Assembly (NCBI RefSeq): GCF_044324875.1
Contig: NZ_CP172185.1
Source: Escherichia coli
GTDB taxonomy: Bacteria; Pseudomonadota; Gammaproteobacteria; Enterobacterales; Enterobacteriaceae
DNA length: 64,000 bases
Direction: 5' to 3' (one strand)
Both the position numbers and the translations under genes were made by a program. The notes beneath the pieces are model-generated. The model was not told the origin of the DNA, made no database searches, and saw nothing but the letters and a program-made list of their open reading frames with translations. Of the stretch, positions 3,433 to 56,494 are shown piece by piece; the first letter of the stretch is position 1, and every line of letters begins with the position of its first letter.

Positions 3433-3520
3433 GGAAGTGTGGCCGAGCGGTTGAAGGCACCGGTCTTGAAAACCGGCGACCCGAAAGGGTTCCAGAGTTC
3501 GAATCTCTGCGCTTCCGCCA
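3433..3520 (+). tRNA. serT: tRNA-Ser (anticodon UGA)
   Basis: GGAAGTGTGGCCGAGCGGTTGAAGGCACCGGTCTTGAAAACCGG...TTCGAATCTCTGCGCTTCCGCCA; class II tRNA with long variable arm, anticodon loop CT-TGA-AA, 3' CCA. Confidence 0.9.
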
Positions 3521-14924: not shown

Positions 14925-15092
14925 TTGTAAGTTTTCAACTACGTTGTAGACTTTACATCGCCAGGGGTGCTCGGCATAAGCCGAAGATATCGGTAGAGTT
15001 AATATTGAGCAGATCCCCCGGTGAAGGATTTAACCGTGTTATCTCGTTGGAGATATTCATGGCGTATTTTGGATGATAACGAGGCGCAAAAA
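14925..15092 (+). promoter_or_regulatory. ompA promoter (TTGTAA-16 bp-TAGACT) and long 5' UTR
   Basis: -35/-10-like hexamers at about 14925 and 14947; about 132 nt leader GCCAGGGGUGCUCGGCAUAAGCC... before the ATG; the ompA leader is a known Hfq/MicA target. Confidence 0.7.
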
Positions 15093-16145
15093 ATGAAAAA
15101 GACAGCTATCGCGATTGCAGTGGCACTGGCTGGTTTCGCTACCGTAGCGCAGGCCGCTCCGAAAGATAACACCTGGTACACTGGTGCTAAACTGGGCTGG
15201 TCCCAGTACCATGACACTGGTTTTATTCCTAACAATGGTCCGACCCACGAAAACCAACTGGGTGCAGGTGCTTTTGGTGGTTACCAGGTTAACCCGTATG
15301 TTGGCTTTGAAATGGGTTACGACTGGTTAGGTCGTATGCCGTACAAAGGCGACAACATCAACGGCGCATACAAAGCTCAGGGCGTTCAGCTGACCGCTAA
15401 ACTGGGTTACCCAATCACTGACGATCTGGACATCTACACTCGTCTGGGTGGTATGGTATGGCGTGCAGACACCAAGGCTAACGTACCTGGTGGCGCATCT
15501 TTTAAAGACCACGACACCGGCGTTTCTCCGGTTTTCGCTGGCGGTGTTGAGTACGCGATCACTCCTGAAATCGCTACCCGTCTGGAATACCAGTGGACCA
15601 ACAACATCGGTGACGCACACACCATCGGTACTCGTCCGGACAACGGCATGCTGAGCCTGGGTGTTTCCTACCGTTTCGGTCAGGGCGAAGCAGCTCCAGT
15701 AGTTGCTCCGGCTCCAGCTCCGGCACCGGAAGTACAGACCAAGCACTTCACTCTGAAGTCTGACGTTCTGTTCACCTTCAACAAAGCAACCCTGAAACCA
15801 GAAGGTCAGGCTGCTCTGGATCAGCTGTACAGCCAGCTGAGCAACCTGGATCCGAAAGACGGTTCCGTAGTTGTTCTGGGTTACACTGACCGCATCGGTT
15901 CTGACGCTTACAACCAGGGTCTGTCCGAGCGCCGTGCTCAGTCTGTTGTTGATTACCTGATCTCCAAAGGTATCCCGGCAGACAAGATCTCCGCACGTGG
16001 TATGGGCGAATCCAACCCGGTTACTGGCAACACCTGTGACAACGTGAAACAGCGTGCTGCACTGATCGACTGCCTGGCTCCGGATCGTCGCGTAGAGATC
16101 GAAGTTAAAGGCATCAAAGACGTTGTAACTCAGCCGCAGGCTTAA
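15093..16145 (+). CDS. ompA: Outer membrane protein A
   Basis: Signal peptide [21 protein letters not shown], beta-barrel domain, APAPAP hinge, C-terminal peptidoglycan-binding domain; variant external loops. Confidence 0.95.
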
Positions 16146-16159
16146 GTTCTCGTCTGGTA

Positions 16160-16188
16160 AAAAACCCCGCTGCTGCGGGGTTTTTTTT
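16160..16188 (+). terminator. ompA rho-independent terminator
   Basis: AAAAACCCCGC-tgct-GCGGGGTTTTTTTT. Confidence 0.8.
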
Positions 16189-16900
16189 GTGCACAGAAAA
16201 CCCCCAGCTAGGCTGGGGGTTCCGGAAAGCTTTCAGCTTTGAGCCAGTTATTAAAACCCCTTTTGATTTGTTAAAACACCTTGCGGTCTGGCAACTGCAA
16301 GTGTCAAACAAGAAATCAAAAGGGGGTCCCAATGGGGAACGAAAAGAGCTTAGCGCACACCCGATGGAACTGTAAATATCACATAGTATTTGCGCCAAAA
16401 TACCGAAGACAGGTGTTCTACAGAGAGAAGCGTAGAGCAATAGGCTGTATTTTGAGAAAGCTGTGTGAGTGGAAAAGTGTACGGATTCTGGAAGCTGAAT
16501 GCTGTGCAGATCATATCCATATGCTTGTGGAGATCCCGCCCAAAATGAGCGTATCAGGCTTTATGGGATATCTGAAAGGGAAAAGCAGTCTGATGCTTTA
16601 CGAGCAGTTTGGTGATTTGAAATTCAAATACAGGAACAGGGAGTTCTGGTGCAGAGGGTATTACGTCGATACGGTGGGTAAGAACACGGCGAAGATACAG
16701 GATTACATAAAGCACCAGCTTGAAGAGGATAAAATGGGAGAGCAGTTATCGATTCCCTATCCGGGCAGCCCGTTTACGGGCCGTAAGTAACGAAGTTGGA
16801 TGCAAATGTCAGATCGTGTGCGCCTGTTAGGGCGCGGCTGGTAAGAGAGCCTTATAGGCGCATTTGAAAAACCTCCGGCTATGCCGGAGGATATTTATTC
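16189..16900 (+). mobile_element. IS200-family insertion sequence, copy 1 (about 712 bp)
   Basis: Identical to the copies at 48635..49346 and 55755..56466; left end GTGCACAGAAAACCCCCAGCTAGGCTGGGGG hairpin, right end CCTCCGGCTATGCCGGAGGATATTTATTC; single tnpA; no target duplication. Confidence 0.9.
16332..16790 (+). CDS. tnpA: IS200 transposase TnpA (Y1 HUH family)
   Basis: 152-aa product MGNEKSLAHTRWNCKYHIVFAPKYRR...HIHMLVEIPP, with the HxH motif and catalytic Tyr region typical of IS200/IS605 TnpA. Confidence 0.92.
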   Translation: MGNEKSLAHTRWNCKYHIVFAPKYRRQVFYREKRRAIGCILRKLCEWKSVRILEAECCADHIHMLVEIPPKMSVSGFMGYLKGKSSLMLYEQFGDLKFKYRNREFWCRGYYVDTVGKNTAKIQDYIKHQLEEDKMGEQLSIPYPGSPFTGRK

Positions 16901-16931
16901 GTCTTTAGAAAATTGAACTGACTTTCGTCAG

Positions 16932-17384
16932 TTATTCCTTACCCAGCAATGCCTGCAGATCCTGCTTCAAAGAAGACATTTTATTCGCGTATTTCTCTTT
17001 GTTTTCCGCATCTTCAATCAGCTGAACAATCGTTTCAGAAAGCGTTTTACCGCGACGCTGCGCAAGACCAGCCAGACGTTGCCAGACAATAAATTCCAGA
17101 TCGATCGATTTTTTGCGCGTATGCTGGTGTTCCGCATTAAAATGGCGCTTCCGTCTGGCCCGAATGGTTTGCTTCATGCGATTGACCAGTTCCGGATTCA
17201 TATGCTTGTCAATCCAGCCATTTACCAGCACGGGTTCATTTTCCAGCGAGAGCAACACATCGACGGCTTCCTGGGCGGCACTGGCTTCTATGTAACGGGT
17301 GATTAACTCCCCTTCGCGATGCTTCTTCACCAGATACTTCCATTTCCAACCGCTTTCAAGATTTTCAAGTTGTTGATATTTCAT
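16932..17384 (-). CDS. matP: Macrodomain Ter protein MatP
   Basis: 150-aa [38 protein letters not shown]. Confidence 0.9.
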
Positions 17385-30090: not shown

Positions 30091-31101
30091 TTAGATATGG
30101 GTAACGATTTCTTTAATCAGCGGCGGACCTTTAAAAATAAAACCAGAATAAATTTGCACCAGTGATGCCCCCGCAGCAATCTTTTCACGCGCAGCGATAA
30201 CCGAGTCAATGCCGCCAACACCGATGATCGGTAAGCGACCGTTTAATTCCTGTGACAAGCGGCGAATAATTTCTGTGCTTTTTAACTGAAGCGGACGACC
30301 ACTTAAGCCACCGGTTTGATCACAATTTTTCATTCCCTGAACCAGAGAACGATCGAGCGTGGTATTGGTTGCAATAACGCCATCAATATTATGGCGAACT
30401 AAACTATCGGCAACCTGGATCAATTCTTCTTCAGAAAGATCCGGCGCGATCTTCACTGCGATCGGCACATATTTATGGTGCATCGCTTGCAAATCATTTT
30501 GCTTATTTTTAATCGCAGTTAAGAGATCATCCAGCGCTTCACCATATTGCAGTGTGCGTAGTCCTGGAGTATTCGGCGATGAAATATTGATGGCGATATA
30601 TCCCGCATAAGCATAGATTTTTTCCATACAAATCAGATAGTCATCTTTACCCTGCTCCACCGGCGTATCTTTATTTTTGCCGATGTTAATACCCAGGACG
30701 CCATCATAATGGGCTTTTTTTACGTTCTCTACGAGGTTATCAACGCCAAGATTATTAAAGCCCATACGGTTGATCAAACCTTCGGCATCTACCAGACGAA
30801 AGAGACGCGGCTTGTCATTACCTGGCTGTGGACGTGGCGTGACGGTACCGATCTCGATCGATCCAAATCCCATCGCGCCTAACGCGTCAATGCACTCCCC
30901 GTCTTTATCAAGACCGGCTGCCAGACCAAGCGGATTTTTAAACGTCAGGCCCATGCAGTTAACAGGTTTCGCAGGCACTTTCTGCCGCACCAGTGCTTCA
31001 AACGGCGTTCCTGTAATACGGCGTAATTGCTGAAAAGTAAACTCATGAGCGCGCTCTGGATCGAGCTGGAAAAGGGCTTTACGAACGAAGGGGTAGTACA
31101 T
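30091..31101 (-). CDS. pyrD: Dihydroorotate dehydrogenase (quinone)
   Basis: 336-aa product [23 protein letters not shown]; ORF 30091..31128 is an upstream extension. Confidence 0.93.
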
Positions 31102-31211
31102 GAACTCTCCTGGATTCCCGGTGTGCAAACCGGGGGCGTATTATGTGCGAGTTCGGACCAAAAGGGAATTGACCTGTGGCAAAAAAAGCGCAAACGTTTT
31201 CCGAGCCTGTT

Positions 31212-42597: not shown

Positions 42598-42795
42598 ATG
42601 CCGGATGTGGCGCACAAAACCAGCAGTTTCAACGGATTGTAGGCCTGATAAGACGCGTCAAGCGTCGCATCAGGCATTTGGGCACGGCTGCCGGATGCGG
42701 CGTGAACGCCTTATCCAGCCTACAAAACCAGCATTTTCAACGGACTTGTAGGCCTGACAAGACGCGTCAAGCGTCGCATCCGGCATTTTGGCTCA
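42598..42795. repeat. REP/BIME cluster
   Basis: Two near-identical units of about 95 bp (AAAACCAGCAGTTTCAACGGATTGTAGGCCTGATAAGACGCGTCAAGCGTCGCATCAGGCAT and its second copy) plus GCCGGATGCGGCGTGAACGCCTTATCC REP palindromes. Confidence 0.85.
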
Positions 42796-48562: not shown

Positions 48563-48593
48563 TGTTACGGAATATTACACTGCAACATTTGCG
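48563..48593 (+). promoter_or_regulatory. Distal OmpR-binding site of ompF (F4-like)
   Basis: TGTTACGGAATATTACACTGCAACATTTGCG; it would sit about -380 to -350 from the predicted ompF start site once the 712-bp IS is subtracted. Confidence 0.55.
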
Positions 48594-48634
48594 CACAAAA
48601 AATAATCCGCATTCTTATTGCGGATTAGTTTTTT

Positions 48635-49346
48635 GTGCACAGAAAACCCCCAGCTAGGCTGGGGGTTCCGGAAAGCTTTCAGCTTTGAGCCAGTTATTAA
48701 AACCCCTTTTGATTTGTTAAAACACCTTGCGGTCTGGCAACTGCAAGTGTCAAACAAGAAATCAAAAGGGGGTCCCAATGGGGAACGAAAAGAGCTTAGC
48801 GCACACCCGATGGAACTGTAAATATCACATAGTATTTGCGCCAAAATACCGAAGACAGGTGTTCTACAGAGAGAAGCGTAGAGCAATAGGCTGTATTTTG
48901 AGAAAGCTGTGTGAGTGGAAAAGTGTACGGATTCTGGAAGCTGAATGCTGTGCAGATCATATCCATATGCTTGTGGAGATCCCGCCCAAAATGAGCGTAT
49001 CAGGCTTTATGGGATATCTGAAAGGGAAAAGCAGTCTGATGCTTTACGAGCAGTTTGGTGATTTGAAATTCAAATACAGGAACAGGGAGTTCTGGTGCAG
49101 AGGGTATTACGTCGATACGGTGGGTAAGAACACGGCGAAGATACAGGATTACATAAAGCACCAGCTTGAAGAGGATAAAATGGGAGAGCAGTTATCGATT
49201 CCCTATCCGGGCAGCCCGTTTACGGGCCGTAAGTAACGAAGTTGGATGCAAATGTCAGATCGTGTGCGCCTGTTAGGGCGCGGCTGGTAAGAGAGCCTTA
49301 TAGGCGCATTTGAAAAACCTCCGGCTATGCCGGAGGATATTTATTC
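48635..49346 (+). mobile_element. IS200-family insertion sequence, copy 2, inside the ompF upstream regulatory region
   Basis: Identical to copy 1; left end abuts AATCCGCA-ttcttatt-GCGGATT hairpin plus T-run. Confidence 0.9.
48778..49236 (+). CDS. tnpA: IS200 transposase TnpA
   Basis: Protein identical to the copy-1 TnpA. Confidence 0.92.
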   Translation: MGNEKSLAHTRWNCKYHIVFAPKYRRQVFYREKRRAIGCILRKLCEWKSVRILEAECCADHIHMLVEIPPKMSVSGFMGYLKGKSSLMLYEQFGDLKFKYRNREFWCRGYYVDTVGKNTAKIQDYIKHQLEEDKMGEQLSIPYPGSPFTGRK

Positions 49347-49552
49347 TTAGCTGATAGCACAATTTTCATACTATTTTTTGGCGTTCTGGATGTCTGAACG
49401 AGGATTTAGTGCCAGGTCGATAAAGTTTCCATCAGAAACAAAATTTCCGTTTAGTTAATTTAAATATAATGAAATCATATAAATAGATAAATATTGCTGT
49501 AAATATCATCACGCTTCTATGGAAATATGACGGTGTTCACAAAGTTCCTTAA

Positions 49553-49660
49553 ATTTTACTTTTGGTTACATATTTTTTCTTTTTGAAACCAAACCTTTAT
49601 CTTTGTAGCACTTTCACGGTAGCGAAACGTTAGTTTGAATGGAAAGATGCCTGCAGACAC
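49553..49660 (+). promoter_or_regulatory. ompF proximal OmpR sites (F1-F3) and core promoter
   Basis: TTTTACTTTTGGTTACATATTTTTTCTTTTTGAAACCAAA direct-repeat OmpR half-sites, about 110 bp of leader before the ATG at 49765. Confidence 0.6.
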
Positions 49661-49764
49661 ATAAAGACACCAAACTCTCATCAATAGTTCCGTAAATTTT
49701 TATTGACAGAACTTATTGACGGCAGTGGCAGGTGTCATAAAAAAAACCATGAGGGTAATAAATA

Positions 49765-50853
49765 ATGATGAAGCGCAATATTCTGGCAGTGATCGTCCCT
49801 GCTCTGTTAGTAGCAGGTACTGCAAACGCTGCAGAAATCTATAACAAAGATGGCAACAAAGTAGATCTGTACGGTAAAGCTGTCGGTCTGCATTATTTCT
49901 CCAAGGGTAACGGTGAAAACAGTTACGGTGGCAATGGTGACATGACCTATGCCCGTCTTGGTTTTAAAGGGGAAACTCAAATCAATTCCGATCTGACCGG
50001 TTATGGTCAGTGGGAATATAACTTCCAGGGTAACAACTCTGAAGGCGCTGACGCTCAAACTGGTAACAAAACGCGTCTGGCATTCGCGGGTCTTAAATAC
50101 GCTGACGTTGGTTCTTTCGATTACGGCCGTAACTACGGTGTGGTTTATGATGCACTGGGTTACACCGATATGCTGCCAGAATTTGGTGGTGATACTGCAT
50201 ACAGCGATGACTTCTTCGTTGGTCGTGTTGGCGGCGTTGCTACCTATCGTAACTCCAACTTCTTTGGTCTGGTTGATGGCCTGAACTTCGCTGTTCAGTA
50301 CCTGGGTAAAAATGAGCGTGACACTGCACGCCGCTCTAACGGCGACGGTGTTGGCGGTTCTATCAGCTACGAATACGAAGGCTTTGGTATCGTTGGTGCT
50401 TATGGCGCCGCTGACCGTACCAACCTGCAAGAAGCTCAACCTCTTGGCAACGGTAAAAAAGCTGAACAGTGGGCTACTGGTCTGAAGTATGACGCGAACA
50501 ACATCTACCTGGCAGCGAACTACGGTGAAACCCGTAACGCTACGCCGATCACTAATAAATTTACAAACATCAGCGGCTTCGCCAACAAAACGCAAGACGT
50601 TCTGTTAGTTGCGCAATACCAGTTCGATTTCGGTCTGCGTCCGTCCATCGCTTACACCAAATCTAAAGCGAAAGACGTAGAAGGTATCGGTGATGTTGAT
50701 CTGGTGAACTACTTTGAAGTGGGAGCAACCTACTACTTCAACAAAAACATGTCCACCTATGTTGACTACATCATCAACCAGATCGATTCTGACAACAAAC
50801 TGGGCGTAGGTTCTGACGACACCGTTGCTGTGGGTATCGTTTACCAGTTCTAA
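49765..50853 (+). CDS. ompF: Outer membrane porin OmpF
   Basis: 362-aa ORF, signal peptide [23 protein letters not shown]-terminal VAVGIVYQF. Confidence 0.95.
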
Positions 50854-55754: not shown

Positions 55755-56466
55755 GAATAAATATCCTCCGGCATAGCCGGAGGTTTTTCAAATGCGCCTA
55801 TAAGGCTCTCTTACCAGCCGCGCCCTAACAGGCGCACACGATCTGACATTTGCATCCAACTTCGTTACTTACGGCCCGTAAACGGGCTGCCCGGATAGGG
55901 AATCGATAACTGCTCTCCCATTTTATCCTCTTCAAGCTGGTGCTTTATGTAATCCTGTATCTTCGCCGTGTTCTTACCCACCGTATCGACGTAATACCCT
56001 CTGCACCAGAACTCCCTGTTCCTGTATTTGAATTTCAAATCACCAAACTGCTCGTAAAGCATCAGACTGCTTTTCCCTTTCAGATATCCCATAAAGCCTG
56101 ATACGCTCATTTTGGGCGGGATCTCCACAAGCATATGGATATGATCTGCACAGCATTCAGCTTCCAGAATCCGTACACTTTTCCACTCACACAGCTTTCT
56201 CAAAATACAGCCTATTGCTCTACGCTTCTCTCTGTAGAACACCTGTCTTCGGTATTTTGGCGCAAATACTATGTGATATTTACAGTTCCATCGGGTGTGC
56301 GCTAAGCTCTTTTCGTTCCCCATTGGGACCCCCTTTTGATTTCTTGTTTGACACTTGCAGTTGCCAGACCGCAAGGTGTTTTAACAAATCAAAAGGGGTT
56401 TTAATAACTGGCTCAAAGCTGAAAGCTTTCCGGAACCCCCAGCCTAGCTGGGGGTTTTCTGTGCAC
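55755..56466 (-). mobile_element. IS200-family insertion sequence, copy 3 (inverted)
   Basis: Reverse complement identical to copies 1 and 2; left end abuts the mukB terminator T-run. Confidence 0.9.
55865..56323 (-). CDS. tnpA: IS200 transposase TnpA
   Basis: Protein identical to the copy-1 and copy-2 TnpA. Confidence 0.92.
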   Translation of the reverse strand: MGNEKSLAHTRWNCKYHIVFAPKYRRQVFYREKRRAIGCILRKLCEWKSVRILEAECCADHIHMLVEIPPKMSVSGFMGYLKGKSSLMLYEQFGDLKFKYRNREFWCRGYYVDTVGKNTAKIQDYIKHQLEEDKMGEQLSIPYPGSPFTGRK

Positions 56467-56494
56467 AAAGAAAAGGCGGCATTGCTGCCGCCTT
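56466..56494 (-). terminator. mukB rho-independent terminator
   Basis: On the minus strand AAGGCGGCAGCAATGCCGCCTT followed by TTCTTT, immediately 3' of the mukB stop. Confidence 0.7.

Follow-up and report, generated by a model that had tools for sequence, protein, structure and literature searches.

Hairpin ends, a predicted antisense RNA and terminator-adjacent insertion of an IS200-type element in Escherichia coli

By its sequence, the stretch at positions 16189–16900 of the E. coli DNA analysed here (64,000 nt in length, henceforth the window) is an intact IS200, namely the E. coli variant IS200C in the IS200 group of the IS200/IS605 family, and two further copies lie in the same window. 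We consider it highly probable that the hairpins near the ends of this IS200C copy would serve both as single-stranded DNA sites for the transposase TnpA and as transcription terminators, and that tnpA would be held down by a leader stem that sequesters its Shine-Dalgarno (SD) sequence together with the antisense RNA art200. Nothing about the hairpins and the antisense RNA is new: they are textbook IS200 anatomy, already characterised in Salmonella, and the regulatory layers involved (left-end terminator, SD-sequestering stem, art200 and Hfq) were dissected experimentally between 1999 and 2017. All three copies also stand directly behind a hairpin and its T-tract. The features on which the analysis rests are as follows (LE, left end; RE, right end):

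16161–16188, plus strand: intrinsic terminator of ompA (AAAAACCCCGCTGCTGCGGGGTTTTTTTT), the T-tract of which is the insertion target adjoining the LE of copy A
16189–16900, plus strand: IS200-type element, copy A, 712 bp, directly behind the T-tract of the ompA terminator and without a target-site duplication
16197–16200, plus strand: A-run at the 5' foot of the LE hairpin, a candidate guide sequence for the T-rich cleavage/target site by analogy with IS608 (PMC6006769)
16199–16221 (core palindrome 16201–16219), unstranded: LE subterminal hairpin AACCCCCAGC-TAG-GCTGGGGGTT, a presumed TnpA-binding single-stranded DNA hairpin and a published bidirectional terminator (PMC4513863)
16226–16240, plus strand: small hairpin AAAGCTTTCAGCTTT where the published tnpA transcript begins, at about nt 40 of the IS (PMC4513863)
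16251–16340, minus strand: predicted art200 (STnc490) antisense sRNA, 90 nt, with coordinates from PMC4513863
16257–16326, plus strand: SD-sequestering 5'UTR stem, i.e., the published inverted repeat of nt 69–138, with compensatory changes at 9 pairs
16332–16790, plus strand: tnpA, encoding a 152-aa Y1/HUH transposase (HIH at residue 61, Tyr125)
16347–16376, minus strand: inferred art200 promoter, with a −35 TTTACA (16376–16371) and a weak −10 TAAGCT/CTAAGC (16353–16347)
16814–16867, plus strand: interior stem-loop of the right end, downstream of the tnpA stop and ahead of the RE hairpin, kept in Salmonella and Yersinia
16867–16871, plus strand: A-run at the 5' foot of the RE hairpin, a candidate right guide sequence
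16872–16890, unstranded: RE subterminal hairpin CCTCCGGC-TAT-GCCGGAGG, terminator-like on both strands and a presumed TnpA-binding single-stranded DNA hairpin
48635–49346, plus strand: IS200-type element, copy B, 712 bp, in the asnS–ompF intergenic region after a hairpin and T-run (48597–48634)
55755–56466, minus strand: IS200-type element, copy C, 712 bp, directly behind the mukB terminator and co-oriented with mukB

The single substantial gene of the element, tnpA, encodes a protein that matched the Pfam family Y1_Tnp (E 1.7e-37) and the NCBIfam model NF033573 (IS200/IS605 family transposase; 145.9 bits against a cutoff of 55 bits), and that is homologous to the solved TnpA proteins of IS608 and ISDra2 (PDB 2a6m, 2vhg and 2xm3; E 1e-18 to 1e-16). 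Its Tyr125 is the residue that Ellis et al. changed to obtain a catalytically dead enzyme (PMC4513863). The traits found were those of the IS200 group, i.e., a small Y1/HUH transposase, no terminal inverted repeats (GTGCACAG... at the left end and ...ATATTTATTC at the right are not related in this way), subterminal hairpins on the same strand, no target duplication and a short target in the left flank.

The extent of the element was established by comparison with an empty site and between the copies. Specifically, the ompA site in K-12 reads GGGGTTTTTTTT^GCCTTTAG and the window reads GGGGTTTTTTTT-[IS]-GTCTTTAG, such that T8^GCC in K-12 corresponds to T8-[IS]-GTC in the window and no target-site duplication is present at copy A. 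All three copies have a G at the left and a C at the right in common, while the next base of the right flank differs between them (G, T or C). Given this empty site and these shared ends with a differing right flank, the element spans exactly 16189–16900 and has no target duplication, meaning that the coordinates of the original prediction were exact.

Copies A, B and C were 100% identical over 712 bp in a pairwise comparison within the 64-kb window. The non-IS DNA of the window is 99.5% identical to E. coli; the nearest chromosomal E. coli copies (CFT073, E2348/69 and others) are 98–99% identical to the element, bear the RefSeq name IS200C and are annotated there as 'IS200/IS605-like element IS200C family transposase', and one E. 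coli plasmid copy is 99.9% identical to copy A. Copy A has ompA upstream and matP downstream on the opposite strand. Among 5,426 complete E. coli genomes we found no element at the ompA-terminator site in any, and occupied copies of the asnS site (copy B) in 5 and of the mukB site (copy C) in 97. Some E. coli genomes gave matches at 25–36 places each in these searches. Three identical copies within 40 kb, together with an ompA site that is empty elsewhere, suggest recent transposition (or gene conversion) in this lineage of an element usually described as almost immobile.

Several further observations concern the surroundings of the copies. Copy B lies about 420 nt upstream of the ompF ATG (with 49347–49765 in between) and puts 712 bp between a distal OmpR-box-like sequence, GTTACGGAATATTACA (about 48565–48580), and the proximal ompF promoter; an effect of this copy on ompF osmoregulation is possible. 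The ompA allele (15021–16145) is a longer loop-3 variant and not the K-12 sequence, and its listed ORF begins at an upstream GTG, the real start being internal. Elsewhere in the window, Rfam matches were found to naRNA4 (CssrE, a REP-derived nucleoid-associated RNA; 42642–42720, minus strand), a pyrD leader (31096–31169, minus strand) and a tRNA (3433–3517, plus strand).

The perfect palindromes that had been reported at both ends of each copy were recovered as exact matches, three of each in the 64-kb window (0 expected). The LE palindrome CCCCCAGCTAGGCTGGGGG, i.e., CCCCCAGC-TAG-GCTGGGGG, lies 12 nt inside the left end and occurs at 16201–16219 (plus strand), 48647–48665 (plus strand) and 56436–56454 (minus strand); the RE palindrome CCTCCGGCTATGCCGGAGG lies 10 nt inside the right end and occurs at 16872–16890 (plus strand), 49318–49336 (plus strand) and 55765–55783 (minus strand). 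Both hairpins folded better than shuffled sequences, as RNA on either strand and as single-stranded DNA (−11.7 kcal/mol for LE and −10.0 kcal/mol for RE in the latter case). The two palindromes are one motif, an A-run followed by CCnCCnGC-TAn-GCnGGnGG: AAAA-CCCCCAGC-TAG-GCTGGGGG at the left and AAAAA-CCTCCGGC-TAT-GCCGGAGG at the right have two stem differences, both of which are compensated, and the RE hairpin of the V. marinisediminis element is a further compensated variant (CCACC...GGTGG). Salmonella IS200F and Y. pestis IS1541A carry both hairpins without any change. The 110-nt right-end segment that includes the interior stem-loop folds at −43 kcal/mol (z = −3.8).

Elements of the IS200/IS605 family have subterminal hairpins to which TnpA binds, and their cleavage sites are recognised by base pairing with a short guide sequence located 5' of the hairpin foot (PMC6006769). 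The original prediction treated the palindromes as RNA elements; by this family mechanism they would first of all be single-stranded DNA hairpins bound by TnpA, and we infer on the same grounds that they are its binding sites. Each hairpin has an A-run directly before it, and cleavage would fall at T-rich sites in both cases (after TTTNTT in the left flank and after TTTATTC at the right end); by analogy with related elements, the A-runs probably guide cleavage at the T-rich flank and right end.

Turning to termination, the LE hairpin has a strong 10-bp stem that is followed on the sense strand by UUCCGG, both U's of which lie within the extended stem, and on the antisense strand by UUUUCUGU; a simple terminator scan did not call it. 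In published assays it terminated about 85% of incoming transcription (PMC5435999), a sense-strand activity that is not obvious from the sequence, as a proper U-tract is found only on the antisense strand. The RE hairpin has the tails ATATTTATTC on the plus strand and TTTTTCAAAT / UUUUUCAAAU on the minus strand, and could both end the tnpA mRNA and stop antisense transcription coming from the right. We found no published regulatory role for the RE hairpin.

To place the left end in a wider context, we scanned species-representative genomes with the 26-nt LE hairpin, which gave at least 120 loci. Those listed fall in Enterobacterales, Vibrio, Oxalobacter and Desulfovibrionaceae as well as in Bacillota, Peptococcaceae, Saccharibacteria and Elusimicrobia MAGs. 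Among the matches listed, the exact 26-nt hairpin also occurs in very distant phyla (and in Mailhella/Desulfovibrio) despite diverged 5'UTR stems, a pattern that suggests either that the hairpin is strongly constrained or that it spread horizontally; many of these distant-phylum matches are located at the ends of contigs, and some MAG contigs may be mis-binned.

The region between the LE hairpin and tnpA was compared with the published map of Salmonella IS200, on which the terminator occupies nt 12–34, tnpA transcription starts at about nt 40 and an SD-sequestering inverted repeat spans nt 69–138 (PMC4513863). We transferred the published coordinates with nt 1 at 16188, which puts the tnpA ATG at 16332. 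The alignment to Salmonella IS200F had no indels across the first 215 nt, and the published terminator (nt 12–34), stem (nt 69–138) and art200 start (nt 153/154) all fall on matching features of the window. The sense leader folds at −43.9 kcal/mol (z = −3.6 against shuffles). Across 16 distinct 5' regions from several phyla, pairing in the SD stem is kept via compensatory changes at 9 pairs, and the loop of this stem, GGUCUGGCAAC, at which pairing between art200 and tnpA initiates (PMC4513863), is nearly invariant. The arms of the stem differ in sequence in the more distant variants, and in Bacillota the 3' arm spans the start codon. Its G-U pairs are mostly on the sense strand, a bias that weakly favours selection on mRNA structure.

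On the opposite strand, art200 is published as a 90-nt RNA starting at nt 153/154 (PMC4513863), i.e., at 16340/16341 on the minus strand of the window; its promoter and start site were mapped by primer extension and mutagenesis. The RNA predicted here has a short 5' segment over tnpA codons 1–3 and the SD, a long stem-loop and a UUUUAA tail, ends after GGGG-UUUUAA at the foot of the mirror-image stem, and folds at −35.5 kcal/mol (z = −5.1 against shuffles). We assigned the promoter hexamers from the published start site and the spacing, which places the −35 (TTTACA, a 5/6 match to the consensus) in tnpA codons 14–15 and the −10 in codons 6–7 at a spacing of 17–18 nt, which agrees with the published account, in which the −35 is good and the −10 'almost unrecognizable' (PMC4513863). 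A sigma-70 consensus scan of 16100–17000 found no promoter on either strand; nothing follows from this, as the art200 −10 of the publication departs from the canonical form and no promoter has been defined for tnpA.

Conservation of this promoter could be followed within the coding sequence that overlaps it. The window, Salmonella IS200F and Y. pestis IS1541A do not differ from one another in the mapped-promoter stretch, and from the ATG to codon 18 the sole difference from IS200F is codon 3. Across 11 gammaproteobacterial variants the third positions of the hexamer codons (6, 7, 14 and 15) were invariant, while the third position was variable in 11 of the 15 other degenerate codons in the range 4–23 (Fisher p = 0.018; a post hoc test with few lineages, confined to codons 4–23, with 4 intact full-length relatives among those retrieved). 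The −35 is not conserved in Bacillota and Saccharibacteria variants. Both parts of the architecture that had been proposed by likeness to Salmonella IS200 were borne out: the LE hairpin corresponds to the published terminator of nt 12–34 at the expected coordinates, and over the 5' region of tnpA the mapped antisense start, promoter stretch and terminator are kept base for base. The art200 of Salmonella IS200 is made and represses tnpA translation in both Salmonella and E. coli (PMC2515195, PMC4513863); in E. coli its promoter fires and it represses tnpA-lacZ about 13-fold (PMC4513863). Given this degree of likeness, art200 would be expected to be transcribed and to repress tnpA in the present host.

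The Rfam family RF01405 (STnc490) matched all three copies (16199–16322, 48645–48768 and 56333–56456). As support for the antisense RNA, however, this match was ruled out by a check of the strand: it scored 146.4 bits on the tnpA-sense strand (nt 11–134 of the IS) and 19.5 bits on the minus strand, where the palindrome alone was matched. Furthermore, RF01405 takes in the LE hairpin, located ahead of the tnpA start, and so fits neither mapped transcript (antisense art200 runs from nt 153 to 64). Sittka et al. 2008 described STnc490 as an antisense RNA of about 85 nt, and the coordinates tabulated for STnc470–640 are those of the whole intergenic region. The RF01405 model is probably the sense strand of the tabulated intergenic interval, and the sense-strand match is a property of the database model, not of the locus. 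A partial match to Ysr202 on the minus strand of the RE (27 bits against a 315-bit threshold) was likewise rejected, as it reflected only the right end shared by IS1541 and IS200.

In the scheme that we favour, TnpA would bind both single-stranded DNA hairpins for 'peel and paste' transposition, and the A-runs would direct cleavage at TTTNTT, where the left flank ends, and at TTTATTC, at the right end. Read-through into tnpA would be blocked by the LE hairpin and the host terminator acting in tandem, and the RE hairpin would be terminator-like in both directions. The 5'UTR stem would bury the SD and thereby keep TnpA synthesis low, and art200, transcribed from a weak promoter in tnpA codons 6–15 and ending at the mirror-image stem and U-tract, would pair with the tnpA leader and leave less TnpA to be made.

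Three other explanations have to be weighed against this scheme. The palindromes may be purely transposition signals, with their terminator activity incidental and the antisense transcript being promoter noise in this host. Such an explanation can draw on the need of the family mechanism for subterminal hairpins (PMC6006769), on the identity of LE and RE as one motif with compensated differences, on the lack of a sense-strand U-tract after the LE hairpin (UUCCGG comes next), on the very weak −10 of art200 and on the host terminator ahead of each copy, which makes an internal one partly redundant. Nonetheless, termination of about 85% at the LE (PMC5435999) and derepression of about 13-fold on art200 knockdown (PMC4513863) have both been reported in E. 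coli, the synonymous sites of the promoter hexamers are invariant and the loop for art200–tnpA pairing is nearly invariant across phyla, and we thus regard this explanation as unlikely. Alternatively, the 5' region may be conserved mainly for host regulation in trans, by a sense 5'tnpA sRNA (tnpA-90/110) and possibly art200. A processed 5'tnpA sRNA with more than 200 genes affected has been described (PMC5435999; bioRxiv 10.1101/2024.06.26.600842), and the G-U pairs of the SD stem favour selection on a sense-strand RNA. By contrast, the reported targets (invF, hilD, SPI-1) are Salmonella virulence genes that are absent from an E. coli-type host, and the 5' region is also kept in elements from Vibrio, Mailhella and Bacillota, which speaks for a function of the element itself; with the content of the window silent on trans targets, we judge host regulation to be a decidedly unlikely main cause.

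The third explanation concerns the opposite-strand ORFs of 108, 103 and 95 aa in the three copies, which might be a real protein gene overlapping the 5' region of tnpA. These ORFs begin at a TTG within tnpA, have their first 84 residues in common (encoded inside the IS) and diverge beyond the left end; they exit this end into different flanks, which is the reason that had been proposed for their differences in length. While the frame is open over the left 252 nt in enterobacterial copies, the product has no Pfam match, its C-terminus is set by the flank, its start codon lacks conservation, and three in-frame stops interrupt it in the V. marinisediminis element, which is otherwise intact, so that a protein-coding role hardly deserves credence. 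The original prediction had dismissed these ORFs, and we concur that they are not genes. For annotation, we recommend naming all three copies IS200C, placing art200 on the strand opposite to tnpA, leaving the antisense ORFs uncalled, and taking Rfam STnc490 matches to mean 'IS200 left end, sense strand'.

The position of the copies relative to host genes followed a common pattern. In the window, hairpin/T-tract structures abut the left ends at 16161–16188 (ompA), 48597–48634 (downstream of asnS) and 56467–56494 (mukB), and all three copies are co-oriented with a GC-rich hairpin and adjoin its T-tract. Among the loci listed in the LE survey, a T-rich hexamer ends 120 of the 123 unique left junctions, with a consensus of TTTNTT right before the element, and a strict, gapless hairpin with T-tract was found at 96 of the 123, compared to 14 of 3000 random control positions. 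We considered whether the T-tract alone, or selection against insertion into genes, could be the cause. When only T-tract ends (i.e., at least 5 T in the last 6 positions) were compared, a hairpin was present at 79% of the IS junctions (76 of 96, loci listed), far above the 9.6% of control T-tract ends and the 10.7% of ORF-free control T-tract ends, and both causes were rejected on these grounds.

Two junctions in Y. pestis were head-to-tail tandems of IS1541 (L067, at about 300–370, and L114). In these tandems the new copy follows directly after the RE of the previous one (hairpin and ATATTTATT), the RE being in the role of the target, and the RE appears to resemble the preferred target.

We tentatively propose, as a possibility to which we give somewhat less than even weight, that IS200-group elements home to intrinsic terminators, with TnpA or the excised single-stranded circle recognising the hairpin and TTTNTT as a mimic of the element's own RE. 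If this were true, each new copy would be placed co-oriented behind a host terminator and thus be insulated from the start, and the IS1541–IS1541 tandems of Y. pestis would be a direct by-product. A recent preprint found bulk terminator enrichment for IS200/IS605 and read it as limiting transposase expression; the association may reflect either mechanistic recognition of the hairpin or selection, and the older IS200/IS1541 literature may already have described it. Adjacency to terminators in about 120 independent insertions from many phyla, among the loci listed, bears on how single-strand transposons choose safe sites, and also matters for the reading of sRNAs found 'just upstream of IS200'.

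Compared to known systems, the element shares with Salmonella enterica IS200 (IS200F, LT2 copies) the 707–712 bp size class, identical LE and RE hairpins, the same SD stem and the same art200 start, promoter stretch and terminator geometry, and a Salmonella plasmid copy of IS200F has 91.9% nucleotide identity to it. It differs from Salmonella IS200 by a divergence of about 8%, with about 8 positions in the overlap of art200 and the 5'UTR (automatically matched on both strands), by one extra base (C) at the right end and by its E. coli-type host. The likeness to E. coli IS200C is closest in identity (98–99% for chromosomal copies and 99.9% for the plasmid copy), the difference being the insertion at the ompA terminator, seen in 0 of 5,426 complete genomes. 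IS1541 of Y. pestis is 87% identical, with identical hairpins and promoter stretch and insertion after a hairpin and T-tract, but differs in the first 8 nt (GTGCCCAG vs GTGCACAG) and in a right end without the terminal C.

IS608 (H. pylori) and ISDra2 (D. radiodurans) resemble the element in their homologous Y1/HUH TnpA and subterminal hairpins; they too leave the target unduplicated, insert on the 3' side of a short sequence in the flank that adjoins the LE, and are cleaved at the RE about 10 nt beyond the hairpin in the 3' direction. Unlike them, IS200 is without tnpB, its hairpins are perfect palindromes, and its target is a T-tract after a hairpin and not TTAC or TTGAT; 12 nt separate its left cleavage site from the hairpin, against 19 nt in IS608. 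Finally, the RNA-OUT/RNA-IN system of IS10 offers a regulatory parallel, as there too a cis-encoded antisense sRNA over the translation start of the transposase blocks 30S binding (PMC4513863). IS10, however, encodes a DDE transposase unrelated to that of IS200 and is unrelated in sequence, and the pairing in IS200 is loop-to-loop at its start, limited to about 40 bp and independent of Hfq.
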